DNA of 64,000 nt from an uncultured bacterium (GCA_964399495.1 CAYNQX010000011.1:16589-80588), one strand, 5' to 3'. Positions 2,934 to 32,209 are shown, counted from the stretch's first letter. Made by a program: numbers and translations. The notes: generated by a model from the sequence alone, not told the origin.

Positions 2934-3021
2934 CAACAACTTACGACGCCCCTTGACAGTCGGCGCCCCGATTACTATCATTGCATTCGAATATACGAAT
3001 GAAGCAATCGAGGAGATCGAC

Positions 3022-3306
3022 GTGGACTTCCATCTCGCCAGCGAACGACTCAAGGCCATGGGGCACCCCACCCGCCTGCGCATCCTCGAGATGCTCAGGG
3101 AAGACGGATGCTGCGTGGGCGAGATCGAGAAGCGGCTGGAGCTGCGGCAGTCCAACGTGAGCCAGCACCTGCGGGTGCTCAAGGCCTGCGGCCTCGTCAC
3201 GATGGAGCGCCGCGGGCAGACCACCTGCTACAGCATCAACGAGCCCCTGGTCACCCCGCTCCTCGATTGCCTGGAAACCGACACGCCGGACACACCCGGC
3301 GAGTAA
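3022..3306 (+). CDS. ArsR/SmtB-family metalloregulatory or redox transcriptional repressor
   Basis: HTH HPTRLRILEML...CVGEI...QSNVSQHLRVLKACGLV. GTG start at 3022 preceded by AGGAGA (3011-3016). The longer ORF from 2953 crosses an AT-rich region with low GC3 and an imperfect inverted repeat (attgcattcgaatatacgaatgaagcaat) that looks like operator/promoter rather than coding. Confidence 0.7.
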   Translation: MDFHLASERLKAMGHPTRLRILEMLREDGCCVGEIEKRLELRQSNVSQHLRVLKACGLVTMERRGQTTCYSINEPLVTPLLDCLETDTPDTPGE

Positions 3307-3322
3307 CCGAACGGAGACGACG

Positions 3323-4360
3323 ATGTCGACCGACCCGCTCATCGATGAGCAGACCGGCCAGAACCTGCGCGAATTCTTCACGACTCGGCTGAACGAGCCC
3401 GTGGAGATGACCCTCTTCACCGCCGACGAGAACGGGGATGCCGTCGAGTTCACTCGCCGCTTCGTCACCGAACTCGCCGCCCTCAGCGACAATCTCGTCC
3501 TGAACGACAAGCCCCTCGGCGACGAACAGCGCGCCCACGGCATGGTGTCCCCCAGCCTGACCCTGGGCGAGAACCTGGGCTACAAGGTGGAGATCCACGG
3601 CGCGCCCAGCGGCCACGAGGCCGGCGCACTGGTGGAGGCCCTGGGCCTCATCGGCTCCGGCGACTCCAGCCTCGGCGCCGAGAGCCGCGAGCTGCTCACT
3701 GCGGTCGACAAGGACGTGTTGCTCTACTCCTTCGTCACGCCCACTTGCCCGCACTGCCCCGGCTCCGTGCTCCAGAACCACAAGATCGCGGTGGAGGCCA
3801 AGGGCAAGGTGCGCTCGGTGGCCGTGAGCGCGGCCGAGAACATGGAACTCGCCCAGCGCTTCAATGTAAGCAGCGTCCCCCAACAGGTAATCAACGAGGA
3901 CCCGGACAGCGCCACCATGGGCACCCAGCCCGAGAAGGCCTATGTGGAGCAGGTTCTGGAGTACGGCGCCAGCGACGCCGAGAGCGTCCTGGCGGCCTCC
4001 CGCGAGCGGGAAGCCGCGAAGTCGAAGCTGTCGGACAGCCCGGAGGCCGCTCTCACGCTGACCGACGCGAACTTCGAGGAAGCCGTCGCGAAGTATCCCT
4101 TCCTCATCGTCGACCTGTGGGCGGAGTGGTGCGGACCCTGCCGCATGCTGGGACCCATCGTCGAGGAACTGGCGGTCGAGCAGAAGGGCCGCATGGTCTT
4201 CGGCAAGCTGGACACCGAGGCCAATCAGCAGGTGCCCGCGCGCTTCGAGGTGCAGTCCATTCCCACGATGCTGGTGTTCAAGAACGGTGAGATGATCGAT
4301 CGCATCGTCGGCGCCAGCCCCAAGGAGGCGCTGCTGGAGAAGCTGGAAGGCCTGCTCTAG
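3323..4360 (+). CDS. thioredoxin-fold protein disulfide oxidoreductase-like protein with two redox motifs (CPHC and WCGPC)
   Basis: N-terminal glutaredoxin/PDO-like unit with CPHC and a C-terminal classical thioredoxin (WAEWCGPCRM). SD acggaga before ATG 3323. Confidence 0.7.
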   Translation: MSTDPLIDEQTGQNLREFFTTRLNEPVEMTLFTADENGDAVEFTRRFVTELAALSDNLVLNDKPLGDEQRAHGMVSPSLTLGENLGYKVEIHGAPSGHEAGALVEALGLIGSGDSSLGAESRELLTAVDKDVLLYSFVTPTCPHCPGSVLQNHKIAVEAKGKVRSVAVSAAENMELAQRFNVSSVPQQVINEDPDSATMGTQPEKAYVEQVLEYGASDAESVLAASREREAAKSKLSDSPEAALTLTDANFEEAVAKYPFLIVDLWAEWCGPCRMLGPIVEELAVEQKGRMVFGKLDTEANQQVPARFEVQSIPTMLVFKNGEMIDRIVGASPKEALLEKLEGLL

Positions 4361-4491
4361 GCGGGAAGTCCGGTTGTCTTGAATCAACCGGCCCCGTTCA
4401 TGCATCGATAGGCACGAGAAACGCACGGACAACCCGAACACGGCGACGGATGCATCGAGCCCGCGCCCCTGCGACATCCAAGGAGACTGGA

Positions 4492-5043
4492 ATGAAGAAG
4501 ATCCTCGTCACGCTGACTCTCGTCGGCACCCTTGCCCTGAGCCTGGCCCTTCCGGCCTCGGCCCTCACCGGCAAGGGCGCCCTCGCCCCCGACTTCACGC
4601 TGACCACCCTGGACGGCAAGCAGGAGATCACGCTCTCGGAGCTTCAGGGCAAGGTGGTCTACATCGACTTCTGGGCGAGCTGGTGCGGGCCCTGTCGCAA
4701 GGCGCTGCCCGCGGTGCAGGCGCTCTGGCACGAGTACCGGGACGAAGAGTTCCAGATGCTCGGCGTGAACCTGGACCGGAAGCTCGAGGCGGGCCTGAAG
4801 TACGTCGAGGCCAAGGGCGTCGACTTCCCCAGCGTCTTCGACGAGGGCGGCCGCGTCTCCACCAGCTTCGGCGTCCGCAGCATCCCGAGCATGCTGATCA
4901 TCGGCCCCGACGGCAAGGTCGCCTATAGCGAGGTGGGCTTCAATCCCCGCGCGCTGCCGGAGATCAAGAGCACCATCAACCGGCTGCTCGGCAAGGCCAC
5001 CGACACCTCGCCGGACGCTTCGGTTCAGAGCTCCAAGCCCTGA
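4492..5043 (+). CDS. TlpA/ResA-family periplasmic thiol:disulfide oxidoreductase (signal peptide)
   Basis: MKKILVTLTLVGTLALSLALPASA signal peptide; WASWCGPC active site. AGGAGA 4481-4486 before ATG 4492. The ORF-track start at 4450 is less likely. Confidence 0.8.
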   Translation: MKKILVTLTLVGTLALSLALPASALTGKGALAPDFTLTTLDGKQEITLSELQGKVVYIDFWASWCGPCRKALPAVQALWHEYRDEEFQMLGVNLDRKLEAGLKYVEAKGVDFPSVFDEGGRVSTSFGVRSIPSMLIIGPDGKVAYSEVGFNPRALPEIKSTINRLLGKATDTSPDASVQSSKP

Positions 5044-5068: not shown

Positions 5069-5097
5069 GAGCCCCCGCCGACACGGCGGGGGTTTTT
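5069..5097 (+). terminator. rho-independent terminator after the tlpA-like gene
   Basis: agCCCCCGCCGacacGGCGGGGGtttttcc: GC stem followed by a T5 run, lying between convergent genes. Confidence 0.6.
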
Positions 5098-5110: not shown

Positions 5111-5596
5111 TCAGTAGAGCCAGGGAATCAGCCGCTTCCCGACCTCGCGTCGGTAGTCGGCATACTCGGGGAAGCGCTCCATGAGCCGCTTCTCCTCGTA
5201 GCGCGACTTCAGGTCGAAGAACACGAACAGGGCCGGCGCGAACAGAAGGCCGGTCAGGCTCGTCCGCCAGAGAGCGAGCCCCAGTGAGGCCGTGACGAGC
5301 CCGCAGTAGATGGGATGCCGCACGTGGCGGAACACGCCCGTGCGCACGAGACGGCCGTCTTCCCGCGGTTCCGGAAACGCGCTGAGCGTGCCGCGCAGGG
5401 CAAGGAGCCCGCCCGTCCCGAACCAGCCGCCGACGAGGATCAGCGCGATCCCTGCCCAGCGCAGGGGCGCGGGCAGGGACAGACGCATCAGGGGCGGCGC
5501 CCACAGGATGAGGGCGAAGATGAGTGCCTGGACGGCGAGCCAGCCCCACCCGCGGCGGCTCGGCGCACTCTTCATGTCCTTTTCGTCCTCGACCAA
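5111..5596 (-). CDS. ICMT/PEMT-family membrane methyltransferase (isoprenylcysteine carboxyl methyltransferase-like)
   Basis: Multi-TM protein with the RHPIYCGLV motif characteristic of the ICMT/phospholipid methyltransferase family. Last gene of the haem-protein operon. Confidence 0.55.
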   Translation of the reverse strand: MVEDEKDMKSAPSRRGWGWLAVQALIFALILWAPPLMRLSLPAPLRWAGIALILVGGWFGTGGLLALRGTLSAFPEPREDGRLVRTGVFRHVRHPIYCGLVTASLGLALWRTSLTGLLFAPALFVFFDLKSRYEEKRLMERFPEYADYRREVGKRLIPWLY

Positions 5597-5616
5597 CGTC
5601 CCCGCTCCTTGCAGCG

Positions 5617-6012
5617 TCAGTTGTCCAGGGCGCCCTCTTCGATCCAGCGCCCGATCGTCAGGATATCACCGTCGGCCAGAGGGGTGAGGCCCAGCGGCAT
5701 CCGGCTGCCGAAGTCGGGGTTCCCGCGGAGCTTCTGGTAGAGCACCGACGCGGTGCTGTCCCCCGCCGCCACGAGCGGCGCGCCGCCGTAGCCGTTCGCG
5801 GGCACGCCGACGAGCCCCGCCCAGCTATGGGTGAACGCGTGGCAATCCACGCAGACCTGCAGGAGCGGCGTCACGTCGGCGGCGAAGGAGATCGGTTCGG
5901 GATCGCCGTCCCCGCCGGGATCGATCACCGCCACGGGATCCCCCAGATCGGAGCAGCCGGCGGCGATCAGGATCGGAAGCGCAAGAAGAGGGAGTAGGCT
6001 CCGCCGCTGCAT
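5617..6012 (-). CDS. c-type cytochrome lipoprotein, planctomycete-type (PSCyt1-like) monohaem domain
   Basis: Lipoprotein signal MQRRSLLPLLALPILIAAGC. One CVDCH haem motif followed by ...GYGGAPLVAAGDSTASVLYQKLRG...SRMPLGLTPLADGDILTIGRWIEEGA, which resembles the PSCyt1 domain. The start codon is 1 nt from the yceI-like stop (TGAcATG). Confidence 0.55.
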   Translation of the reverse strand: MQRRSLLPLLALPILIAAGCSDLGDPVAVIDPGGDGDPEPISFAADVTPLLQVCVDCHAFTHSWAGLVGVPANGYGGAPLVAAGDSTASVLYQKLRGNPDFGSRMPLGLTPLADGDILTIGRWIEEGALDN

Positions 6013-6013
6013 G

Positions 6014-6613
6014 TCAATCCTCCGACTTCGTGATGCGGGCCACGAGGTCCACCTTCACCTGCTGCACCTCGTTCAACTTGAGAACGAGGAACTTGGGGCG
6101 CGAGATCTCGTGGTCCGCGAGATTGACGGGGAACTCCGTCTTCACGTGGAGCAGCCCGTCCTCGGGACGGGTGATCTCCACCGGCACCTCGATCGTGCGC
6201 GCGACTCCGTGCAGGTCGAACTCCCCGCGCAGGGTGAAGGTGGCGCTGCCGCCCACGCCGACCGCGGTCGTCGAGGGGTCCAGCAGCTCCGTCGCGGTGA
6301 AGGTCGCCTCGGGATACTTCCGCACCTCGAGGTGCCTTTCACGCATGTGCGCGTTGCGCTTCCTGAGCCCCGTGTCCAGGCTCGCCAGGTCCACCTTCAC
6401 GGCCACCTGAACACCGGCTGTGAGATTCCGCAGATCCGCGCTCACGCTGCCGGTGACCTTTCGCGTCTTGCCTTCGAAGGTCTCCATGGGCGCCTTCGAG
6501 ACAAAGCGCACCATGCTCTCCGCGTCGGGCGCGATCAGGTACTCCGCGGCCGTGGCGAACAGGGCCGGCGACAACAGGGTCAAGGTCAGGAATGCGATCA
6601 GCGTTCTCTTCAT
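6014..6613 (-). CDS. YceI-family periplasmic polyisoprenoid/quinone-binding protein
   Basis: Signal peptide plus typical YceI-like sequence (LIAPDAESMVRFVSKAPMETFEGKTRKVTGSV...). Confidence 0.8.
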   Translation of the reverse strand: MKRTLIAFLTLTLLSPALFATAAEYLIAPDAESMVRFVSKAPMETFEGKTRKVTGSVSADLRNLTAGVQVAVKVDLASLDTGLRKRNAHMRERHLEVRKYPEATFTATELLDPSTTAVGVGGSATFTLRGEFDLHGVARTIEVPVEITRPEDGLLHVKTEFPVNLADHEISRPKFLVLKLNEVQQVKVDLVARITKSED

Positions 6614-6638
6614 CCTCGGCTCCTTGCATCGGGTCGCA

Positions 6639-7757
6639 TCAGTAGAGGAAGTGGAGCACCAGCTCGGCCTGGAGGTGGTCTTCCTCCGCGAAGGCGTCGC
6701 CGGATTCGTAGCTCTCGTGATTCAGCATGGCCAGGATGCCCATGAAGGGGCTGGCCAGCAGGTCGCAGCCCAGGCCGATCTTGCGATGGCTGCCGGTGAG
6801 CCGGGCCGTGTCGGGGTCGTAGAAGTTCCAGGTGGCGCGGAGGTCGAGGCCTCGGCGCAGTTGCCAGGCCAGCTCCTGGCTGGCGGCCAGCGCCGTGATC
6901 TCGCCGTCCTCCTCATCCCTGCGCTCCCAGTCCCACTCCCCCACCCAGACCAGCGGTCCCCAGGCGAGGGAGGCGAAGGGGCCGGCCACCTGGCGTACGC
7001 TGCCGACGGCGGCCTCCTCGTCGCGGTAACCCGAAGCGCCCAGCGTCAGGTTCAGCGCGCCCAGGGCATGTCGCAACTCGGCGCGCAGCGCGAAGGCCGG
7101 CCTGTTGTCGCCGTCCATGAGCCGTCCGCCGGCGCCGTTGAGAACCCCGAGGCTGAGCGAGGCGTTCGAGCCGGGGAACAGGCCCAGCTCGAGGCCCACG
7201 TCGCTGTGTCCGGGCGGCGCGAAGCCCAGGTAGCGTCTCACGAACTGGCGGTGGTCGGCGAAGCGCCAGCCGTAGGCGGGGGCGAAGCGTCCGGCCTTCA
7301 CGTAGCCGCCGGCCGGCAGGACGAAGGCGAGGCCGTAGACCTCCGTCGCGCCGGAGAGACCCTGCTCCACGTGGAGGGCGAGCTTCTCGTCGGCCTGGAT
7401 GTGCAGGTAGAGGTCTCCCTGCATCTGGAAGAAGTTGTTGCCGGCCTTCCGCTGCCCCTCGGGCGAGTAGCGGTAGAGGGTGCGCAGGTCGGCGCCCAGG
7501 CTCACGGTTTCGCTGAGCGCGGGATCGATGCCCTCCATTGCCTCCATGTCGAGACGCCGCAGGCTCATCTCGTCGGGAATCAGATACTGGCTGGCGTAGG
7601 CGCTGCGCATGCCGCCGCCGGCGGGGTCGACGTGGCAGAGCAGGCACTTCTGGCCGTATCGCGCGCCGTATCGCGGCAGGGCCTGGGCGGCCGCGACCGT
7701 CAGGAGAATCAGGAGAGCCGTCAGGACGGCGCGGGGAACTATTGAGGACGGCGTCAA
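6639..7757 (-). CDS. putative outer-membrane beta-barrel protein with an N-terminal CXXCH haem-binding motif
   Basis: TTG start at 7757 with GGAGA 7 nt upstream gives the signal peptide MTPSSIVPRAVLTALLILLTVAAAQA. CLLCH follows immediately after the signal peptide. The body is rich in alternating/aromatic residues and the C-terminal residue is aromatic (...LVLHFLY), as in OM barrels. The ORF-track start at 7898 would add a non-signal extension. Confidence 0.5.
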   Translation of the reverse strand: MTPSSIVPRAVLTALLILLTVAAAQALPRYGARYGQKCLLCHVDPAGGGMRSAYASQYLIPDEMSLRRLDMEAMEGIDPALSETVSLGADLRTLYRYSPEGQRKAGNNFFQMQGDLYLHIQADEKLALHVEQGLSGATEVYGLAFVLPAGGYVKAGRFAPAYGWRFADHRQFVRRYLGFAPPGHSDVGLELGLFPGSNASLSLGVLNGAGGRLMDGDNRPAFALRAELRHALGALNLTLGASGYRDEEAAVGSVRQVAGPFASLAWGPLVWVGEWDWERRDEEDGEITALAASQELAWQLRRGLDLRATWNFYDPDTARLTGSHRKIGLGCDLLASPFMGILAMLNHESYESGDAFAEEDHLQAELVLHFLY

Positions 7758-7866
7758 GTCGTGTCTCCGTTTCTGCGGGTATCGAAACTCGGGACGCTCC
7801 CGACCGCCCGCTTCGAAGCGGCCGGAAGCGCCATCGGCTGTACCCGGGGGAGCCAGCCGATCCATC

Positions 7867-8841
7867 CTAGTGGTTGAAGGGGTCTCCGTCGTGGGCAAAG
7901 ACGTAGTCGGATCCGTTGCCGCCCGAGTTGGCGGCGCCGTGGCAGCCGACGCACATGCCTCCCATCACCTCGGCGCCCGTACCGCGAGCCTCCATCGAGA
8001 AGTCGGTCGTATCCAGGGCGAACCACTCCCAGTCGCCGTTGCTCGCATCGAAGCCCGCGCCGCGCTTGACCATGCCGGTCATGCCGATGATGGCGCCGGC
8101 GCCGTCGCGGACCTCCTTGGCGATCATGGTGCCCACGGGGTAACCCCAGTCGCCTTCGGCGGGATTGGCCGCGAGCTGCTTACGGAAGATGGTGCGCACG
8201 GCGTTCTCGTCGTTGCCGGCGTGGGCGGCGCCCAGCGCGGCGTCCGGGCCCTGCTCGCTGTCGATCTCGTGCCAGCTCGCGTAGTCGTCGAAGTCGCCGT
8301 CGGCGACCGCGAACTCGTAGGGGTGGGTGAACACGAAGTCCTCGCCCGCGGCGCCCGTGGCGCTGGTGTGGCAACCCTTGCACATACCGTTCATGAGATC
8401 CGCTCCGCTGTCCACGACATCGCCGCTGACGGGATCCAGCATGAAGTACTCCCAGTCGCCGCCATCGGCGTCGTAGCCCGCGGCGCGCTTCACCATGGCC
8501 AGCAGAGCGCCCTCGGCGGCCCACTGCTTATCGCCGGACGCGTCGAAGGTGAAGGTTTCCTTCACGAGGGCCGCGTCCTCGGGGTAGTCGGCGCGCGCGC
8601 CCCGGGACAGGGCCTGGGCGTTGGCGTGGATGCGCCGCGTGTACTCGCCGTCGTTCCCCGCGTGAGCGGCGCCGAGAAAGTCGGAGGGCGCGTTGGTGTA
8701 TTCCACCTGCTCCCAGCTTTCGTAACCGTCGAACTCCGTGGCGTCGTCGGGGTCGGTGGTGCCGCCGTCGTCGGTGCAGCCGACGGCGAAGAGGGCGATG
8801 AGCCCCAGCGGCAGGAGCAAGAGCATGGCGATTCGATTCAT
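7867..8841 (-). CDS. lipoprotein with two tandem cytochrome P460 / cytochrome c'-beta-like domains, each ending in CXXCH
   Basis: Lipobox LFAVGC. Internal duplication: ...LGAAHAGNDGEY...DGGDWEYFMLD...MNGMCKGCH and ...LGAAHAGNDENA...NGDWEWFALD...MGGMCVGCH. A C-terminal haem motif after a beta-rich domain fits the P460/c'-beta fold. Confidence 0.5.
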   Translation of the reverse strand: MNRIAMLLLLPLGLIALFAVGCTDDGGTTDPDDATEFDGYESWEQVEYTNAPSDFLGAAHAGNDGEYTRRIHANAQALSRGARADYPEDAALVKETFTFDASGDKQWAAEGALLAMVKRAAGYDADGGDWEYFMLDPVSGDVVDSGADLMNGMCKGCHTSATGAAGEDFVFTHPYEFAVADGDFDDYASWHEIDSEQGPDAALGAAHAGNDENAVRTIFRKQLAANPAEGDWGYPVGTMIAKEVRDGAGAIIGMTGMVKRGAGFDASNGDWEWFALDTTDFSMEARGTGAEVMGGMCVGCHGAANSGGNGSDYVFAHDGDPFNH

Positions 8842-19386: not shown

Positions 19387-19712
19387 GGGGTACCCTTTCC
19401 GATTTCCAGGTAAACCGTCTCCCGGGGCGGAGCGGCGCAGGGATAATCAGGCGGGGCAGGCACTATTATACAATATATCCCAAATATCGCACAACTGTCC
19501 GCTCCTCTCGACGGGCCCAACACCGAGATCCCAGAGTTCTTCAAGGATTTCAGGACCTCTTGACCTGGATCAATCACTCCTGACCACTTTGTACCTATCT
19601 TCACGTGGTCGCTGACATATCGGTGACGCGTCGATCGATCGATCCAAGGCGGCCGAGTCGACAAGGCCGCCGAGCACGGGAGTGGGATTCCCCACGCCTA
19701 CAAGGAGAATCA

Positions 19713-21158
19713 ATGAAGACCCTGACAGCTCTGCTGCTCATCTGTCTGATCGCTGCGCCGGCTCTGGCTTTCCAGTCGAACCTGCCCAGTGAGCTTTCGG
19801 AGACGAGCAAAGAGTGCCTGGAGTGTCATAAGGATGACAACCCGGCCCTCTACCAGCAGTGGGGAGACAGCAAGCACCACGGCGCCAACGTTGGCTGCTA
19901 CGAGTGCCATGCCGCCGAAAAGGGCGACAAGGACGTGCTTCGCGACGGTACCCACGACGACTTCGTGATCGCGACCATCGTGTCGCCTCTCGACTGCGGC
20001 CGCTGCCACTCCAAGGAAACGGACGAGTTCCTGAACTCGCACCACTCCAAGGCCGGACGCATCATGGGCTCCCTGGACAACCTCCTCGCCGAGGTCGTCG
20101 AGGGCAATAACGGCCTGGTCACCCCCGCCTTCCCGAACGGTATCTCCGCCGCGGCCGTCAACGGTTGCTGGCAGTGCCACGGAAGCGAGATCAAGGTGAA
20201 CAAGGACGGTACCCTGGATGCCGCGACCTGGCCGAACAGCGGCATGGGCCGCGTGAACCCGGACGGCTCCGAGGGTTCCTGCTCCGCGTGCCACAGCCGT
20301 CACAGCTTCTCCGCGGCGCTCGCGCGCCACCCCGAGAACTGCGGCAAGTGCCACATGGGTCCGGATCACCCGCAGCTCGAGGTGTACAACGAGTCCAAGC
20401 ACGGCATCGCGTTCCGTGCGAACATCGACAAGATGAACCTGAACTCCTCCAAGTGGGTTGTCGGCGAGGACTACAGCGCCGCCCCCACCTGCGCCACCTG
20501 CCACATGAGCGCCACGGCGAACCAGGACATCACGCACAACATCGGTCTGCGCGTGAAGTGGAACAACCGTCCGCCGCGTTCCAAGCTGTCGCACACGACG
20601 GACAAGAAGTGGAACCTGGATTCCCAGAAGATCCACGCCGACACCCGTCGTGAGAACATGATGGACGTCTGCAACAACTGCCACCAGGAGCAGTTCTCCC
20701 GGAACTTCTTCATCCAGTACGAGGGCATCCTCGACCTGTACGATCAGAAGTACGCGGAGCCCGGCCTGAGACTCTACAAGGCCGCCACCGCCGTGCTGAA
20801 GACGAACCCCGACTACGTCAAGTTCGTCCATCCGATCGACTGGACCTGGTTCGAGCTGTGGCACCACGAGGGTCGCCGCGTGCGTCACGCCGCCGCCATG
20901 CAGGCGCCGGACTACACGCACTGGCACGGCACCTACGATCTCGCCAAGCACTGGATGACCAAGTACGTGCCCGAGATCAACGACATCATTCACGAGTACA
21001 AGAAGAGCGCGCCCAAGGAAGTCGCCGTTCTCGAGCAGACTCTGAAGGATGTCCAGAACACGGACAACTGGAAGTGGTCCATCAACAAGGAGGACCCGGC
21101 GATCAAGAAGGCGCGTCAGAAGCGTCAGGAGGAGTTCCGCAGCCGCTACAGCAAGTAG
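19713..21158 (+). CDS. octahaem c-type cytochrome, hydroxylamine oxidoreductase (HAO/HDH)-family-like
   Basis: Signal peptide plus 8 CXXCH motifs (CLECH, CYECH, CGRCH, CWQCH, CSACH, CGKCH, CATCH, CNNCH) in ~480 aa. The C-terminal region has W/H/Y-rich THWHGTYDLAKHW. AGGAGA before ATG 19713. The ORF-track start at 19605 is unlikely. Confidence 0.7.
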   Translation: MKTLTALLLICLIAAPALAFQSNLPSELSETSKECLECHKDDNPALYQQWGDSKHHGANVGCYECHAAEKGDKDVLRDGTHDDFVIATIVSPLDCGRCHSKETDEFLNSHHSKAGRIMGSLDNLLAEVVEGNNGLVTPAFPNGISAAAVNGCWQCHGSEIKVNKDGTLDAATWPNSGMGRVNPDGSEGSCSACHSRHSFSAALARHPENCGKCHMGPDHPQLEVYNESKHGIAFRANIDKMNLNSSKWVVGEDYSAAPTCATCHMSATANQDITHNIGLRVKWNNRPPRSKLSHTTDKKWNLDSQKIHADTRRENMMDVCNNCHQEQFSRNFFIQYEGILDLYDQKYAEPGLRLYKAATAVLKTNPDYVKFVHPIDWTWFELWHHEGRRVRHAAAMQAPDYTHWHGTYDLAKHWMTKYVPEINDIIHEYKKSAPKEVAVLEQTLKDVQNTDNWKWSINKEDPAIKKARQKRQEEFRSRYSK

Positions 21159-21322: not shown

Positions 21323-21835
21323 ATGAGAAGCCTACGCAACCTTTGCATCTACACCGCATTGATCCTCATCGCCACCGCCCCTGTAGCCGCCGCCCTCCCC
21401 GCTTCCGGTTCCATCCTGGTCGTCGAGGCCACCCTCATCGAGGGCCTGGCCGACTATCACGGCGAAGTCGTGGAGTCCGAAACCGAGACCATCGCGCGCG
21501 ACGGCAACCGCTACGTGCTCGAGGGCTCCGGCCTGAGCTCCCTGGATGGGCTCCAGGCCCTCTTCCTGGTGGACCACCGCCGCGACACGCAGAAGTCCGC
21601 CGGCCTCCAGCGCGAGCGCTGGCAGGAGGTGCTCCCCGTGAGCGAGGGCTTCTTCGAGCTGAACGTGCTCCCGGACGAGCCCTTCTGGTACCAGATCGCC
21701 GACGTGAACGGCGAGCTGGGCCTCTTCGGTCAGGGTAACCTGCTCCGCTCCGAGGGCGGCGAGGGCGAGCCCTTCCAGGTGTGGCGCATCGACGGATTGA
21801 AGCTCGTGGACCGCTCCGACATCGCGCTGCGCTGA
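21323..21835 (+). CDS. hypothetical secreted protein
   Basis: Signal MRSLRNLCIYTALILIATAPVAAA. No recognisable domain. High GC3 coding bias. Confidence 0.45.
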   Translation: MRSLRNLCIYTALILIATAPVAAALPASGSILVVEATLIEGLADYHGEVVESETETIARDGNRYVLEGSGLSSLDGLQALFLVDHRRDTQKSAGLQRERWQEVLPVSEGFFELNVLPDEPFWYQIADVNGELGLFGQGNLLRSEGGEGEPFQVWRIDGLKLVDRSDIALR

Positions 21836-21906
21836 ACCGCGCGCGCATTGACAGAGCCCCGCGCTTCCCCCTAGCCTCTCGGTTCCGAGCCGAAGGGGAG
21901 CGAGGC

Positions 21907-22680
21907 ATGGCCGCGGGCATCATCTTCGACATCAAGCGCTTCTCGATCCACGACGGGCCGGGCATCCGCACCACCGTGTTCATGAAGGGCTGTCCCCTGG
22001 ACTGCTGGTGGTGCCACAATCCGGAGAGCCGCCGGGCCGAGCCGGCCGTGCTGGCGGGCGAGGAGGTCGGACGGCGCATCGAGGTGGCCGAACTCCTGGC
22101 CGAGATCGAGAAGGACCAGCCCTTCCACGACGAATCCGGCGGCGGCGTCACCTTTTCCGGCGGCGAGCCCCTTGCTCAACCCGAGTTCCTGCTGGCGGCC
22201 CTCGCCGCCTGTGGAGAGCGGGAGATCCATCGCGCCGTGGACAGCACGGGCCACGCGCCCGCCTATCTGCTGCGCCGCGTGGCAGGGGAGACCGAGCTCT
22301 TCCTCTACGACCTGAAGCACATGGACCCCCAGCGCCATCTGCGCTATACGGGTCGGGAGCTCGCGCCGATCCTGACGAACCTGCGCCTGCTGGCGGAGCT
22401 CGGAAGGCCGGTCGAGATCCGGATACCCGTGATCCCCGGCGTGAACGACGACCCGGACAACCTCGACGCCGCGGGGCGATTCGCGGCCGAGCTCGACAAC
22501 GTGACGGGGCTGGTGCTGCTGCCCTTCCATGCGATGGCCATGCACAAGTACGAGCGCTTCGGCCTGGAGCTGCGCCTGCCCGAGACCCAGGAGCCCGAGC
22601 CCGACGCGCTGCGCACCGCCGCCGACCGGCTCGCCGCCCTGGGCCTGAACGTGAGGATCGGAGGATTCGATGATGAATGA
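21907..22680 (+). CDS. glycyl-radical enzyme activating protein (radical SAM, PflA family)
   Basis: CPLDCWWCHN (CX3CX2C) cluster motif, FSGGEPL, and the DGPGIRTTVF N-terminus typical of GRE activases. Overlaps the GRE gene by 11 nt. Confidence 0.85.
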   Translation: MAAGIIFDIKRFSIHDGPGIRTTVFMKGCPLDCWWCHNPESRRAEPAVLAGEEVGRRIEVAELLAEIEKDQPFHDESGGGVTFSGGEPLAQPEFLLAALAACGEREIHRAVDSTGHAPAYLLRRVAGETELFLYDLKHMDPQRHLRYTGRELAPILTNLRLLAELGRPVEIRIPVIPGVNDDPDNLDAAGRFAAELDNVTGLVLLPFHAMAMHKYERFGLELRLPETQEPEPDALRTAADRLAALGLNVRIGGFDDE

Positions 22681-25030
22681 GCGCGTATCCCGCCTGCGCA
22701 CCGAGAGCTTCGAGGCCGCGGTGAGCTTCTCGGCCGAGCGCGCCGAGCTTATCACCGACTTCTATCACGAGCAGCACGGCAAGGCCTCGGTGCCGGTCAC
22801 CCGCGCGCGCGCCTTCGCGCATCTGTGTCGGCACAAGAGCCTCTGGCTCGGCGAGGGCGAGCTGATCGTCGGCGAGCGCGGGCCGCGCCCCAAGGCCGTG
22901 CCCAGCTACCCGGAGATCACCTGCCACACGGTCGAGGATCTCGAGATCCTGCGCAGCCGGCCCATGACGCCCTATTCAGTGAGCGATGGCGATATCGCCA
23001 TCTACCGCGAGAAGGTGATTCCCTACTGGCGGGAGCGCTGCCTCAGGGAGCGGATCTTCGAGGGGCTGGCATCCGAATGGCGCGGCGCGTATGGCGCCGG
23101 CGTCTTCACCGAGTTCATGGAACAACGCGCGCCGGGACACACCACCCTGGACGGCAAGCTCTACGAGCGGGGCCTCCTCGATCTGCAGGCCGACATCGAT
23201 GAAACCCTGGCCGATCTCGATTTCCACGCCGACCCGGAAGCCTCGGCGAAGCGCGAACAGCTCCACGCCATGCGGATCGCCGCCGACGGCGCCCTCGAGT
23301 TCGCACATCGCCACGCGGCGCTGGCCGAGGAGCGAGCCGCGGCCTGTTCCGACCCGGAGCGCCGAGCCGAGCTCGAGCGCATCGCGGCCATCTGCCGCCA
23401 CGTGCCCGCCCACGCGCCGCGCGACTTCCACGAGGCGCTGCAGGCCTACTGGTTCGTCCACCTGGGCACCATCACCGAGCTCAACGGCTGGGACGCCATG
23501 AATCCCGGGCACCTCGACCGTCACCTGCTCCCCTTCTACGAGCGCGGCCTCGCCGACGGCACGCTCACGCGCGAGCGCGCGAAGGAGCTGCTGGCCTGCT
23601 TCTGGATCAAGTTCAACAACCAGCCCGCGCCGCCGAAGGTGGGCGTGACGGCGGCCGAGAGCGGCACCTACAACGACTTCACCAACATCAACCTCGGCGG
23701 CCTGCTGGCCGACGGCGCAGACGGCGTGAGCGAGCTCTCCTATCTGATCCTCGAGGTGGTCGACGAGATCCACCTGCTGCAACCCCAGTGCAACCTGCAG
23801 CTCAGCCGCAAGAATCCGGATCGCTTCCTCAAGGCCGCGTGCCGGGTGGTCCGCAAGGGCTACGGCTATCCGTCGATCTTCAACGCCGACGGCGTCGTCG
23901 AGCAGATGGTGCGCGTGGGCAAGCGGATCGAGGACGCCCGCGACGGCGGCAGCAGCGGCTGCGTGGAGACGGGCGCCTTCGGCAAGGAGGCCTACATCCT
24001 CACCGGCTACTTCAACACGCCGAAGGTGCTGGAGATCGCGATGCACGATGGTGTCGACCCGCGCGGCGGCGAGCGGGTGGGGCCGGCCACCGGCGAGACG
24101 CGCGACTTCGAGAACTTCGACGCGCTCTACGCCGCCTTCGAGACCCAGCTCCAGCACTTCGTCGACATCAAGCTGGCGGGCAACCAGGTGATCGAGCGGC
24201 TCTACGCCGAGTCGATGCCCGCGCCCTTCCTGTCGCTCTACATCGACGACTGCATCGCGAAGGGCCGCGACTACAACGCCGGCGGCGCCCGCTACAACAC
24301 CAGCTACGTGCAGGGCGTGGGCATCGGCAGCATCACCGACGCGCTCTCGGCCATCCGCACCCACGTGTTCGAGGGCGACCTGACGATGGACGAGCTGCTG
24401 AACGCCCTCGCCGCCGACTTCGGGAACGACGAGCCCCTGCGCCGCCGCCTCGCCGACGAGACGCCGCGCTACGGCAATGATGACGACGCGGCCGACGCCA
24501 TCATGCGCCGCGTATTCGACACGCTGTATGGCGCCGTGGACGGCCGCCCCAACACCCGCGGCGGCGACTACCACCTGGACATGCTGCCCACCACCTGCCA
24601 CATCTACTTCGGCTCGGTCACCGGCGCCACGGCCGACGGCCGCCGCGCGGGCGCGCCGCTGTCGGAGGGGATCTCGCCCGTGCAGGGCGCGGATAGGTTG
24701 GGACCCACGGCCGTTCTCAAGAGCGCCGCCAAGATGGACCACCTGCGCACCGGCGGCACCCTGCTCAACATGAAGTTCCTTCCGCGTCTGCTCGCCGACC
24801 GCGAAGGGATCGACGGCCTCGCCCAGCTCATCCGCGGCTACTTCCGCCTGGACGGCCACCATCTGCAGTTCAACGTGGTGGACGTCGACACGCTGCGCCG
24901 CGCCCAGGAGAGGCCCGAGGAGCATCGCGATCTCATCGTGCGGGTGGCCGGTTACAGCGACTACTTCGTGGATATCGGGCGGGAGCTGCAGGACGAGATC
25001 ATCGCGCGGACGGCGCAGGAGGGGCTCTAG
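22670..25030 (+). CDS. glycyl radical enzyme, PFL2 / glycerol-dehydratase-like 1,2-eliminase subfamily (substrate unknown)
   Basis: 786 aa. Glycine-radical motif RVAGYSDYF near the C-terminus. Active-site GSSGCVETG (Cys-x-Glu as in the CutC/GDH/HypD eliminases). No small-subunit genes nearby. Confidence 0.85.
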   Translation: MMNERVSRLRTESFEAAVSFSAERAELITDFYHEQHGKASVPVTRARAFAHLCRHKSLWLGEGELIVGERGPRPKAVPSYPEITCHTVEDLEILRSRPMTPYSVSDGDIAIYREKVIPYWRERCLRERIFEGLASEWRGAYGAGVFTEFMEQRAPGHTTLDGKLYERGLLDLQADIDETLADLDFHADPEASAKREQLHAMRIAADGALEFAHRHAALAEERAAACSDPERRAELERIAAICRHVPAHAPRDFHEALQAYWFVHLGTITELNGWDAMNPGHLDRHLLPFYERGLADGTLTRERAKELLACFWIKFNNQPAPPKVGVTAAESGTYNDFTNINLGGLLADGADGVSELSYLILEVVDEIHLLQPQCNLQLSRKNPDRFLKAACRVVRKGYGYPSIFNADGVVEQMVRVGKRIEDARDGGSSGCVETGAFGKEAYILTGYFNTPKVLEIAMHDGVDPRGGERVGPATGETRDFENFDALYAAFETQLQHFVDIKLAGNQVIERLYAESMPAPFLSLYIDDCIAKGRDYNAGGARYNTSYVQGVGIGSITDALSAIRTHVFEGDLTMDELLNALAADFGNDEPLRRRLADETPRYGNDDDAADAIMRRVFDTLYGAVDGRPNTRGGDYHLDMLPTTCHIYFGSVTGATADGRRAGAPLSEGISPVQGADRLGPTAVLKSAAKMDHLRTGGTLLNMKFLPRLLADREGIDGLAQLIRGYFRLDGHHLQFNVVDVDTLRRAQERPEEHRDLIVRVAGYSDYFVDIGRELQDEIIARTAQEGL

Positions 25031-25737: not shown

Positions 25738-27421
<1,684 letters not shown>

Positions 27422-27455
27422 CTAGCTCCTCGTGTGGACGGTTGTCGGGCGCTGC

Positions 27456-28334
27456 CTACTTCAAGGCCTCCGCGCCTCCGACGATTTCCAGCAGCTCCTT
27501 GGTGATCTGTGCCTGGCGCGCCTTGTTGAAGGACAGCGTGAGATTGTCGATCATCTCCTTCGCGCTGTCCGAGGCCGCCTTCATTGCCGTGCGCCGCGCG
27601 CCCTGCTCGCTCGCCGCCATCTCCAGGAGATAGCGGAAGAACGTGTTGCGCAGGAAGAGCGGCAGCAGTTCGCCGAGCAGGCCCTCGGCGTCCGGCTCTA
27701 GGATGAAATTCAGCTTCGTGCCGCTGCCCTCCTCCTCCTCGTCCTCCGTGCTCGGCAGAGCCAGGGGCAGGACGTGGTCGAGGGTGGGCGGCTGCTCCGC
27801 CGCGTTCTTGAAGCGGGGATAGGCGATGTGGACCTCGTCCACGTCGCCGTCCAGGAAGGCGCCGCTCAGCATGTCCGCGAACATGTCGGCGTCCTCGGGT
27901 CCCGGGCGGTCGGGCAGGTCGATCGTGCTGTACTTCACCTCGCGGCCGATGAAGCGCAGATAGCTCGTGCCCTTCTTGCCGACCGCGTAGATGTCGACCT
28001 CGCGGCCCAGCGCCTCCTGCTCCTTGATGAAGCGCAGGCTCATCCGCATCAGGTTCGTGTTGATGGCGCCGCAGAGGCCGCGGTTGGTGGTGAGCACCAG
28101 CAGCGCGACCCGCTTCACCTCGTCCCGAGTCGTCAGGAGCGGGTGCACGTCGCTCTCGCCCGCGGCCAGGAGCCCCAGCATCTTCGGCAGGGTCTCCGCG
28201 AAGGGACGCGCCGCGCTGAGGTTGTCCACCGCGCGCTTGAACTTGCTGGTGGCCACCATCTCCATGGTGCGCGTGATCTTGTGCGTACTGGTGACGCTCT
28301 TGATCCGCTTCTGGATGTCCTTGGCGTTGGCCAT
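27456..28334 (-). CDS. atpG: F1 ATP synthase gamma subunit
   Basis: Typical gamma N-terminus (MANAKDIQKRIKSV..TKAM) and C-terminus. Confidence 0.9.
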   Translation of the reverse strand: MANAKDIQKRIKSVTSTHKITRTMEMVATSKFKRAVDNLSAARPFAETLPKMLGLLAAGESDVHPLLTTRDEVKRVALLVLTTNRGLCGAINTNLMRMSLRFIKEQEALGREVDIYAVGKKGTSYLRFIGREVKYSTIDLPDRPGPEDADMFADMLSGAFLDGDVDEVHIAYPRFKNAAEQPPTLDHVLPLALPSTEDEEEEGSGTKLNFILEPDAEGLLGELLPLFLRNTFFRYLLEMAASEQGARRTAMKAASDSAKEMIDNLTLSFNKARQAQITKELLEIVGGAEALK

Positions 28335-28341
28335 CGGTCTC

Positions 28342-29853
<1,512 letters not shown>

Positions 29854-29854
29854 C

Positions 29855-30409
29855 TCATTCCTTTCCCAGTTCGGCCGTCATGAGACGGTCTCGCATACGG
29901 CCCAGGCGCGTCCTGAGGCTGCCGTCGACGGTCTGGTCGGCCAGGTTGAGCACCATGCCGGCCAGCAGTTCTTCGTCGGTCTCCGTTTCCAGGAGCACCC
30001 TGGCTCCCGTGGAGCGGCTCAAGGCTCCCTCGATGTCACCCTTCTCCTCGTCTCCCAGGTCGCGCGCGGTGACGAGGCGGCCACGCAGGCGGCCTTCGCG
30101 CACGTCCATGAGATGTCGGAACATCTCGAGGATGTTGCCGAGCAGAGGCTCCCGGTGCTTGTGCAGCAGCACGAGCAGGAAGCGGAGCGTCAGGGTCGAG
30201 GAGGCATCCGACATCAGCTTTTCGAGGGCCCCCCGCTTCTGGGCCACGCCGAGCTCCGGCGATTCCAGCAGGCGACGGAACTCGGGGCTCTCGTCCCAGA
30301 GTTCCCTCAGGGCCAGCAGGTCGGCGCCCACCGCTTCGAGCTCGTCCTTTTCCCGGGCGAGTTCCAGCAGCGCGGCGGCGTAGACCTTTGCGATGGACGC
30401 ATACCTCAC
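29855..30409 (-). CDS. atpH: F1 ATP synthase delta (OSCP) subunit
   Basis: Position between atpF and atpA. OSCP-like sequence. Confidence 0.8.
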
Positions 30410-30960
30410 GACTCATCCACCTCGCTCATGAACTCCTTGGCCAGGCGCGTGTGGTCCGCGTCGTCGAGGGAGCGTTCGAGAAGTTTGCCGGCCACCTGCA
30501 CACTGAGGTCGACGACCTCGGCGCGCAGGGACTCCCGGGCCTTCTCGGCCTCGATCTGGATCTCCTTGCGGGCCGACTCCACGATTCCGTTTGCCTCGGA
30601 CTGCGCCTTGGCGACGATCTCGTCCTGCATGGACTTCGCCGTGACCGTGCCCTGATCGATGATCTTCTGGGCCTCCTGGCGCGCCTCGGCGAGTTCCGCC
30701 TGCTGCTGCTCGAGCAGCTTGCGGCCCTCCTCGCGCGCCTCGTCGGCCTCGGCCAGGGACGCGCGGATCTTCTCCTCGCGCCGGTCCAGGCCGTCGACGA
30801 TCGGACCCCAGGCCGTCTTCCTCAACAGGATGAGGAGACCGACGAAGGTCGCGACCGTCCAGAAGATCAGTCCCGGATCGGGGCTGAGCAGGCTGTAGCT
30901 CCGGCCGCCGTCGGCGGCGGAGAGCAGGAAGGGTAGTCCGGCGTGAAACAGGTCACACAT
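30406..30960 (-). CDS. atpF: Fo ATP synthase subunit b
   Basis: N-terminal TM helix followed by a long charged coiled coil (EEAR, KIRASLAEADEAREEGRKLLEQQQAELAEARQEAQKII). Confidence 0.85.
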   Translation of the reverse strand: MCDLFHAGLPFLLSAADGGRSYSLLSPDPGLIFWTVATFVGLLILLRKTAWGPIVDGLDRREEKIRASLAEADEAREEGRKLLEQQQAELAEARQEAQKIIDQGTVTAKSMQDEIVAKAQSEANGIVESARKEIQIEAEKARESLRAEVVDLSVQVAGKLLERSLDDADHTRLAKEFMSEVDES

Positions 30961-30978
30961 GGATGTTTTCCTTCGCGT

Positions 30979-31248
30979 TTAACCGGAAGACGTCGCGAGC
31001 ATGATGCAGATAACGAGAGCGAACAGGCCGACACCCTCGATCAGGGCGGCCGCGAGGATCATGGCGCCACGGATGTCGCCGGCGGCCTCGGGCTGACGGG
31101 CGATGCCCTCCATGGCCGAAGCGGCCAGTTTACCGATGCCCAGTCCGGCGCCGATGACGGCGATGCCGGCACCGATGCCCGCGGACAGATGGGCGGCGTT
31201 CAAAGCAGCGAAGAAGGGAAGCATCTGATACTCCTCCTGGGTGGACAT
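30979..31248 (-). CDS. atpE: Fo ATP synthase subunit c
   Basis: Two-helix hairpin proteolipid with the conserved GIGAGIA.IGAGLGIG and ion-binding E (ALIEGV). Confidence 0.85.
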   Translation of the reverse strand: MSTQEEYQMLPFFAALNAAHLSAGIGAGIAVIGAGLGIGKLAASAMEGIARQPEAAGDIRGAMILAAALIEGVGLFALVICIMLATSSG

Positions 31249-31276
31249 GGGCCGAAGCCCGGTTTCGGTCCCCGGC

Positions 31277-32209
31277 TTAGTGCTCGGGATGGACCGCCTG
31301 GTAGATGAAAATCGTAGACAGGAACGTGAAAATGAAGGCCTGCAGGAAGGCCACGAAAATCTCGAAAGCGCTGATGGCCACTGCGCCCGCGAAGGGCAGG
31401 GGAGCGAGATAGACGGTCTTCAGCGAAAGTCCGAAGATCAACCCGAAGAAGCTCAGGATGATGATGTGCCCCGCGATCATGTTGGCGAACAGTCGCATGG
31501 TGAGCGCGAAGGGCTTGGTGAACATGCCCATGATCTCGATCGGGATCATGATCGGCACGAGCGGCCAGGGCACGCCGGGCGGCACGAGCGCCTTCCAGTG
31601 CGCGATGAAGCCGTTTTCCTTGATGCCCGCGACCTGGGTCACGAAGAAGGTGATGAGCGCCAGCGTCGCCGTGACGTTGATGTTGCCGGAGGCCGTGGCC
31701 ATGGTGGGAATCATGCCGAGCAGGTTGAGGAACAGGATGAAGAAGAAGAAGTTCATCAGCAGCGGCATGAAGCGGCGCCCGACCTTGGGGCCCATGATGT
31801 TGTACACCACCTCGTCGCGCATGTAGACGATGATCGCCTCGAAGAAGTTGCGCAGGCGGCCCTTGGGCACGAGGCCGTCCTGATCGGTCTGCCTGGCGGC
31901 GCGGCTCACGACGAGGGTGAGGAGGATGGCGGCCAGCCAGATCATGATGACGTGGATCGAGGGAGCGAGATCGATGTGCAGGCTGCCCAGCTTCAGCGTG
32001 GGCAGGGGGAGCAGCTCGGCCAGGTTCCACTTGGTGTGGTGGGTCAGCTCCCAGTAGTCGCGATTGAGGACGTGTCCGAGAGCATCGAGCTTGTCGCCGT
32101 GCCCGGCCGCGTGCTCGACGGCATGTTCCGCGCCGTGGGCAACGTCGGCGGTCGCCGCGTGGGCGTCGTGTCCCGGTGCCTGAGTGCTCGCGAGGAACAA
32201 GGGCATCAC
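31277..32209 (-). CDS. atpB: Fo ATP synthase subunit a
   Basis: Conserved R in LTMRLFANMIAGH and polytopic membrane protein features. Confidence 0.9.
   Translation of the reverse strand: MMPLFLASTQAPGHDAHAATADVAHGAEHAVEHAAGHGDKLDALGHVLNRDYWELTHHTKWNLAELLPLPTLKLGSLHIDLAPSIHVIMIWLAAILLTLVVSRAARQTDQDGLVPKGRLRNFFEAIIVYMRDEVVYNIMGPKVGRRFMPLLMNFFFFILFLNLLGMIPTMATASGNINVTATLALITFFVTQVAGIKENGFIAHWKALVPPGVPWPLVPIMIPIEIMGMFTKPFALTMRLFANMIAGHIIILSFFGLIFGLSLKTVYLAPLPFAGAVAISAFEIFVAFLQAFIFTFLSTIFIYQAVHPEH

Follow-up and report, generated by a model that had tools for sequence, protein, structure and literature searches.

What does a bacterium do with an outer-membrane barrel that carries a haem motif and is encoded beside a lipoprotein with two P460-like domains, a YceI lipocalin and a small cytochrome? 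Five genes with these and one further product lie at positions 5111-8841 of a 64,000-nucleotide stretch of DNA from an uncultured bacterium (GCA_964399495.1 CAYNQX010000011.1:16589-80588), the whole of which is called the window below. The original prediction took them for one operon of unusual haem proteins, serving either periplasm-to-outer-membrane electron transfer or the detoxification of hydroxylamine (NH2OH) and NO. We find that the barrel protein belongs to a divergent branch of the Cyc2 superfamily, and that the conserved unit consists of this barrel, a small PSCyt1-type cytochrome and YceI, not of five genes. Fused cytochrome-porins of the Cyc2 kind are already known; what is new is a module of this superfamily with a distinct motif and distinct conserved partners, its most unusual element being a rare tandem P460. 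We give a probability of about 0.6 to the reading of the locus as a Cyc2-type outer-membrane electron-transfer module, for which Fe(II) would, by analogy, be the likeliest substrate.

The five open reading frames are arranged head to tail at the predicted coordinates and strand. Their G+C content at third codon positions is 0.87-0.91, and the pattern of G+C over the codon positions is that of real genes. Lengths are in amino acids (aa).

7867-8841, minus strand: g1, 324 aa, lipoprotein with two P460-fold haem c domains
6639-7757, minus strand: g2, 372 aa, Cyc2-like fused monohaem cytochrome-porin
6014-6613, minus strand: g3, 199 aa, secreted YceI-family lipocalin (polyisoprenoid/quinone-binding fold)
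5617-6012, minus strand: g4, 131 aa, small monohaem c-type cytochrome lipoprotein of the PSCyt1 type
5111-5596, minus strand: g5, 161 aa, membrane methyltransferase of the PEMT/ICMT superfamily

The barrel protein g2 begins with MTPSSIVPRAVLTALLILLTVAAAQA, a signal peptide as judged by eye, followed by LP...CLLCH. The haem motif stands in the sequence ALPRYGARY-GQK-CLLCH (CLLCH at nucleotides (nt) 7632-7646, residues 38-42) and is the single CXXCH of the protein; a 16-strand barrel follows, with the aromatic C-terminus (LHFLY) that the family shares with outer-membrane barrels. Sequence searches against Pfam, NCBIfam and the Protein Data Bank (PDB) gave no match, nor did tblastn against plasmids, so that the identification of g2 rests on structure prediction and profile-profile comparison. 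The AlphaFold2 model has 16 strands at a predicted local distance difference test score (pLDDT) of 92.3, and its best structural match is OprP, which is also the structural relative reported for Cyc2 (PMC8406198). Seven residues are invariant among 100 homologues: C38, C41 and H42 of the haem motif, together with P28, P45, G47 and R51. The near-invariant M112, H169 and H369 are candidates for the distal ligand of the haem. The barrel had been predicted to carry haem, which agrees with these data; it had also been regarded as a rarity, and this view has to be abandoned, because the protein belongs to a widespread superfamily.

Cyc2 has been described as a protein with a signal peptide, a single CXXCH and a 16-strand OprO/OprP-like barrel, with the motif AXPXFAR[Q/K][T/Y] ahead of CXXCH and PXL after it, acting as an Fe(II) oxidase with a haem potential near +200 mV (Keffer et al. 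2021, PMC8406198). Like the Cyc2 of Acidithiobacillus ferrooxidans and Cyc2PV-1 of Mariprofundus, g2 combines an N-terminal signal peptide and one N-terminal CXXCH with an OprO/OprP-like barrel of 16 strands, and its length of 372 aa, counted from TTG 7757, exceeds the Cyc2 length filter of FeGenie (at least 365 aa). For comparison we collected 120 metagenome loci with the literal motif FAR[QK][TY]-x3-CXXCH, nearly all matches having a spacer of three residues. The canonical set used here thus consists of metagenome proteins picked by the literal motif, without characterised proteins, and includes 70 complete sequences of 395-542 aa; g2, with about 370 aa, is shorter. The three-residue spacer brings A-L-P-R-Y-G-A-R-Y-GQK-CLLCH of g2 into register with A-x-P-x-F-A-R-[QK]-[TY]-xxx-CXXCH, and both can be written as A-x-P-x-aromatic-small-x-basic-[YT]-x3-CXXCH. 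Within this register the g2 family has Y/F for F, A/S for A, A for R (position 7) and R for Q/K, and behind the haem motif PXL is replaced by P-x-GGG-x-R.

The profile of the g2 family was aligned with that of the canonical set by hhalign, with reversed templates as controls:

g2 family against canonical set, full length: 98.8%, E 8.9e-17, 329 columns
the same, template reversed: 0.6%, E 0.091, 63 columns
barrel only (signal peptide and haem region removed): 93.8%, E 1.8e-7, 253 columns
barrel only, template reversed: 0.7%, E 0.077, 62 columns
two canonical subgroups against each other: 99.9%, E 1.6e-33, 407 columns

The full-length alignment spans the protein from the signal peptide to near the end of the barrel. 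Since homology is found both at full length and in the barrel taken by itself, and disappears in the reversed controls, the g2 clade is a divergent and distinct branch of the Cyc2 superfamily. Motif-lacking sequences were dropped from the published Cyc2 tree (PMC8406198), and the g2 clade is therefore probably not part of it. Surveys based on FeGenie report 'Cyc2' in Krumholzibacteria, and these proteins may belong to the g2 clade.

A word-indexed search for relatives of g2 returned 111 clusters. With a hidden Markov model (HMM) built from 100 sequences, a full scan gave 3,326 representatives at 50% identity, of which 516 reach E<=1e-30. Three distant relatives (P0109, P0110 and P0111; 473-488 aa) have two CXXCH motifs (YAARAGRTCDNCH ... 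C.ACHVDPAGGGMR) ahead of the barrel and represent a dihaem version of the cytochrome-porin. Two apparent fusions of barrel and YceI were rejected. In P0037 (489 aa) the C-terminal LHFLY of the barrel is internal and the frame reads through into YceI, and P0099 (346 aa) is a deletion chimera in which the N-terminal half of the barrel runs on into the middle part of YceI; both are probably artefacts of assembly or gene calling.

Relatives of g2 are present in at least 164 species-representative genomes, and the synteny counts given here cover 80 species-representative loci from this set. The loci come mostly from Eisenbacteria, Krumholzibacteria, Latescibacterota, Zixibacteria, Ignavibacteria and Bacteroidota; Gemmatimonadetes, Rokuibacteriota, Nitrospirae and others each appear as the label of a single record. 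A g4-type cytochrome adjoins the barrel gene in 60 of the 80 loci by tblastn and in 69 by clustering, often as two to three tandem copies in Bacteroidota and Ignavibacteria. YceI is adjacent in 39 loci, essentially those of Eisenbacteria, Krumholzibacteria and Latescibacterota. Both neighbours are on the same strand as the barrel gene. By contrast with this recurrent association of barrel, cytochrome and YceI, the tandem P460 gene is found in only two of the 80 loci and the methyltransferase gene in none, so the five genes that had been predicted to form the unit reduce to a core of g2 and g4, joined by YceI in about half of the loci. No YceI, g4-like or P460-like neighbour occurs in the 120 canonical-motif Cyc2 loci (773 kb), which makes these partners specific to the g2 clade. 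The literature search found no paper that links YceI or P460 with Cyc2. MtrCAB, MtoAB and PioAB are likewise outer-membrane conduits in which c-type haem and lipoprotein cytochromes go together with a barrel.

In some genomes the module has a further neighbour, a secreted protein of about 290 aa with an N-terminal G.PGE..C..CH and a C-terminal sorting domain of the type IX secretion system (T9SS). It stands beside the module in eight loci and in two more that contain the tandem P460:

L004, 3837-4706: T9SS-sorted haem protein
L204, 2738-3619: T9SS-sorted haem protein
L011, L017, L033-L036, L044 and L209: further loci with this protein

The protein is a secreted haem protein that fits an envelope-spanning electron path and may be an extracellular haem partner; there is none in the window. 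A larger cluster of 22 loci was rejected as one family, being joined by the T9SS tail, and only eight of its members are the haem protein. A variant module is seen in locus L205 (6001-9851), with a tandem P460, a very divergent g2 (390 aa, PQFSNFTGNSCISCH), a 106-aa protein with a single transmembrane segment, YceI and a lipoprotein-type Rieske protein.

The YceI assignment of g3 is confirmed by Pfam (PF04264, E 2.1e-23, 83.8 bits against a cut-off of 23.7), and its relatives in the PDB are Escherichia coli YceI, X158 domains and TT1927b. Domains of this type bind ubiquinone-8 or polyprenyl chains. They are known to be genetically coupled to haem proteins of extracytoplasmic redox systems: in Cbp2D/Cbp2E, Cbp2D has two c-type cytochrome domains besides its YceI-like X158 domain, and the lipocalin BcnA is paired with a cytochrome b561 (BcnA-LcoA). 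In contrast to these systems g3 is a separate protein, not fused, its partner is an outer-membrane cytochrome-porin, and there is no carbohydrate-binding module, lytic polysaccharide monooxygenase or b561. A cytochrome b561 is absent from the operon, the flanking genes and the conserved neighbours.

The lipoprotein g4 has the lipobox IAAGC, the haem motif CVDCH at nt 5839-5853 and conserved RMP and WIxxGA motifs; the family pattern is CxxCH...GP.V.PGD...S.L..KL...RMP...L....I..WI..GA. Its prediction as a PSCyt1 protein stands only through its relatives, seven of the 10 syntenic homologues passing PF07635 with 27.9-54.5 bits (cut-off 22; best E 1.8e-14), while the copy in the window stays below the threshold and gives no match even at E<=1. 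The conserved Met-Pro suggests a His/Met-ligated electron-transfer haem.

The tandem P460 lipoprotein g1 has the lipobox FAVGC and matches Pfam Cytochrome_P460 (E 3.4e-17) in two stretches. Its domains extend over residues ~35-176 and 177-324, and identity between the halves is 41% (E 4e-28), so the two P460-like domains that had been predicted are indeed present. The principal sites are:

8368-8382, minus strand: CKGCH of domain 1, from residue 154
7939-7953, minus strand: CVGCH of domain 2, from residue 297
8560-8562, minus strand: K94, candidate cross-link lysine of domain 1, aligned with Lys78 of McP460 and Lys70 of NeP460
8116-8118, minus strand: K242, candidate cross-link lysine of domain 2, counterpart of K94
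8620-8670, minus strand: insertion of domain 1, residues 52-64, with H60
8180-8230, minus strand: insertion of domain 2, residues 199-211, with H207

With the P460 (CytL)/c'-beta superfamily (NeP460, 2je3; McP460, 6hiu; NsP460, 6amg) g1 shares the beta-sheet fold, a C-terminal CXXCH in each domain and the position of the cross-link lysine. The original prediction had left this position as either Lys or Phe; it is lysine in both domains, and K94 and K242 are invariant in the family. In our alignment g1 also has an arginine at the capping position of McP460 Arg50. Profile scores are 4.5e-8 for NeP460, 1.4e-7 for NsP460 and 2.9e-7 for McP460, against about 2e-6 for cytochrome c'-beta. The distal column, which holds Glu96 in NeP460, Asp102 in McP460 and Ala131 in NsP460, an enzyme that does not oxidise NH2OH (PMC11928373, reference residues from its Table 2), is occupied in g1 by L114 (domain 1) and T255 (domain 2), and in this g1 resembles the inactive NsP460. 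NsP460 gains activity through the substitution A131E. As neither domain has a distal carboxylate, oxidation of NH2OH would not be expected from current structure-function knowledge. Compared with solved P460s, each domain further has ~12 residues inserted between its first and second strand; the insertion contains an invariant L-G-x-A-H, the histidine of which (H60, H207) could be an extra haem ligand or a pocket residue.

Known P460s are usually single-domain homodimers, tied to the nitrogen metabolism of nitrifiers or methanotrophs, whereas g1 is a lipid-anchored covalent tandem tied genomically to a Cyc2-like porin. That such a tandem is unusual, as had been supposed, is borne out by the size of the family, which comprises 37 clusters: about 33 tandem lipoproteins of 304-343 aa, one triple (P0130, 461 aa) and three single-domain lipoproteins from Bacteroidota (P0145-P0147, 178-183 aa) that keep the lysine. 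No paper describing a tandem P460 was found in the literature. All 10 tandem contexts inspected (the window, L060, L201, L204, L205, L207, L209, L211, L212 and the P0004 contig; 38-100% identity to g1) have a g2 homologue and YceI beside them, in the same or in divergent orientation. The module thus often occurs without the tandem P460, while the tandem P460 never occurs without the module in these 10 contexts; g1 is a lineage-restricted accessory to the module. In L213 (7718-9613) a single-domain P460 gene has no Cyc2-like gene beside it; at a distance of 1 kb there is an FTR1 iron permease with fused cytochrome c domains. The P460 gene of L032 runs into a masked gap.

Both haem lipoproteins have acidic residues after the lipobox cysteine throughout their families, C-[ST]-[DE]-D-[DG] for g1 (CTDD in the window, residues 22-25, 8773-8778) and C-[SED]-D-x-G-D-P for g4 (CSDL, 5941-5952). 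We take this stretch to resemble the lipoprotein export signal of Bacteroidota, in which case g1 and g4 could sit on the cell surface rather than face the periplasm.

How might these proteins work together? In g2, a monohaem c domain of ~55 residues precedes a 16-strand OprP-like porin, which would place one haem at or in the pore. If it works like that of Cyc2, the haem would take electrons from a small dissolved reductant entering the pore, most likely Fe2+. The lipid-anchored and probably His/Met-ligated g4 is, as a near-universal neighbour, the likely immediate redox partner, comparable to Cyc1 for classical Cyc2. YceI is a clade-specific third component and might perhaps hold a quinone close to the outer membrane, as a cofactor of redox or antioxidant reactions. 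Given the missing distal carboxylate in both of its domains, g1 is more likely a haem partner or a small-ligand-binding protein than an NH2OH oxidase.

Several observations weigh against this reading. The literal motif AXPXFAR[Q/K][T/Y] is found in none of 226 family members (ALPRYGARY in the window) and PXL is changed (CH-V-D-P-A-G-G-G-M-R, the proline being one residue earlier in 212 of the 226 and followed by GGG), so that substrate and potential could differ from those of Cyc2. When the HMM is compared with single sequences, its matches to canonical Cyc2 cover no more than the signal peptide and the haem motif, with 22-33 bits. There is no conserved terminal oxidase, bc1 complex or other iron gene near the module in the 80 loci, and in the window the operon is flanked by thiol-redox genes. 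The clade is known from sequence alone, all 80 loci being from metagenome-assembled genomes. P460-type haems have low potentials and would be poor downstream carriers of electrons from Fe(II), and homologues of Cyc2 also occur in organisms that are not known to oxidise iron.

The main rival explanation, which we consider unlikely, is an envelope antioxidant system in which YceI captures lipid radicals or carries quinol and is re-reduced or oxidised by the cytochromes g2, g4 and g1, protecting the outer membrane in the manner of BcnA-LcoA. YceI is indeed conserved in the module of the Eisenbacteria/Krumholzibacteria clade, the pairing of BcnA with cytochrome b561 is a precedent, and genes for ArsR, thioredoxin-domain proteins and TlpA/AhpC-type redoxins border the operon both in the window and in the three closest relatives, of which L212 adds OsmC; an H2O2_YaaD gene lies near the module of L204. 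However, these thiol-redox neighbours are kept only in close relatives, neither the operon nor its flanks encode a b561, barrel and cytochromes are kept without YceI in half of the module loci (Bacteroidota, Ignavibacteria), and a periplasmic scavenger has no need of a haem embedded in a pore. An ordinary porin of the anion/phosphate type, with a structural CXXCH (disulfide or metal site) clustered by chance with cytochromes, is the least credible explanation: OprP is the best structural match and one family member has a precomputed Porin_O_P match, but C-x-x-C-H including its histidine is invariant in 100 sequences, the flanking motif is in the register of the Cyc2 haem motif, and c-type cytochromes adjoin the gene in 69 of 80 loci from several phyla.

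The original prediction also pointed to an octahaem gene in the window (19605-21158, plus strand; eight CXXCH), which lies 11 kb from the operon. It does belong to the hydroxylamine oxidoreductase (HAO) family, as had been claimed: the best PDB match is 4qo5, a 'hypothetical multiheme protein' (6.5e-44), followed by hydroxylamine oxidoreductases (1e-25), with a weak NapC/NirT match at the N-terminus. A unit for the detoxification of hydroxylamine or NO, centred on the P460 lipoprotein and linked to this octahaem protein, would agree with the cross-link lysine kept in both domains of g1 and with the ranking of true P460s (4.5e-8 to 3e-7) above c'-beta. We nevertheless hold it to be improbable, more so than the antioxidant system, because the distal carboxylate is replaced by Leu and Thr where NsP460 with Ala is already inactive on NH2OH, the tandem P460 is missing from 78 of the 80 module loci, the octahaem gene is on the other strand behind tyrosine-catabolism genes, a sigma factor and NadA, and Pfam scans of parts of the window showed no other nitrogen-cycle genes. 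The general notion of a unit for electron transfer from periplasm to outer membrane is supported. A more ambitious proposal is an undescribed outer-membrane redox machine, widespread in the FCB group, in which a Cyc2-type pore haem would pass electrons to dedicated partners new to Cyc2: a quinone-carrying YceI shuttle (soluble or periplasmic) and, in some lineages, a catalytic Lys-cross-linked tandem P460 lipoprotein, which might for example couple the oxidation of Fe(II) at the envelope to the chemistry of NO, nitrite or peroxide. We regard this as a long shot, slightly less probable than the antioxidant system and slightly more so than nitrogen-oxide detoxification; if true, it would give the P460 cofactor a role outside the nitrogen metabolism of nitrifiers and methanotrophs.

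The preferred reading, a Cyc2-type electron-transfer module, bears on how iron oxidation is surveyed. Cyc2 is the main genetic marker of microbial Fe(II) oxidation in metagenomes, and the g2 sister clade, which sits in phyla rarely considered for iron cycling, does not pass the published motif filter. With some tools a survey may overlook the clade, with others it may call it Cyc2 without noticing the different partners. In a similar way PF16694 is used to count potential N2O-producing cytL, and the tandem P460s would be included in spite of their missing catalytic carboxylate and their tie to a metal or electron-transfer module. The tandem is a natural single-chain form of the usual homodimer and a handy test of the role of the lysine cross-link outside NH2OH oxidation. 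The recurring link of YceI with cytochromes adds to two earlier, independent cases that suggest a redox role for this poorly understood lipocalin.

The remaining features concern the layout of the locus and its surroundings. The intergenic gaps are 109 nt between g1 and g2, 25 nt between g2 and g3, 1 nt between g3 and g4 (TGAcATG, as had been noticed in the original prediction) and 20 nt between g4 and g5. An alternative start of g2 at ATG 7865 would shorten the first gap to 1 nt. We prefer TTG 7757, since GGAG stands 8 nt upstream, a normal signal peptide of 26 residues results, and the N-termini of 100 homologues and the gene call of the Joint Genome Institute (JGI) agree with it. The identical sequence is also present on the JGI contig Ga0171655_1000424. 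Consensus promoter and terminator scans of the locus found nothing. Just past the stop codon of g5, between g5 and a convergent redoxin gene, there is a hairpin that the terminator scan did not call:

5072-5092, minus strand: G+C hairpin of 9 bp, minimum free energy -26 kcal/mol, z -2.4, without a T tract

It is a possible transcript end.

The prediction of g5 as an ICMT-like membrane methyltransferase agrees with Pfam, where both PEMT (45.9 bits, cut-off 25, E 8.6e-12) and ICMT (32.1 bits, cut-off 24, E 1.5e-7) are above threshold; against the NCBIfam equivalogs all scores are far below the cut-offs. A g5 gene follows the module only in the nearest relatives (L211, L212 and the P0004 contig), and on the P0004 contig the homologue stands three genes further on, among redoxin genes. 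Convergent with the operon, positions 2953-5043 (plus strand) encode a regulator of the ArsR family, a double-thioredoxin protein of 345 aa and a redoxin lipoprotein of the TlpA/AhpC type, a block kept beside the operon in the same three relatives. Although co-directional, g5 is not part of the conserved module; it is probably a passenger that goes with the thiol-redox genes next to it.

The scanned parts of the window yielded no terminal oxidase. Further along, the window contains genes for pyruvate formate-lyase and its radical-SAM activase (21781-25030, plus strand) and an F-type ATP synthase operon (26000-32209, minus strand), which point to the chromosomal backbone of a facultative or fermentative organism.

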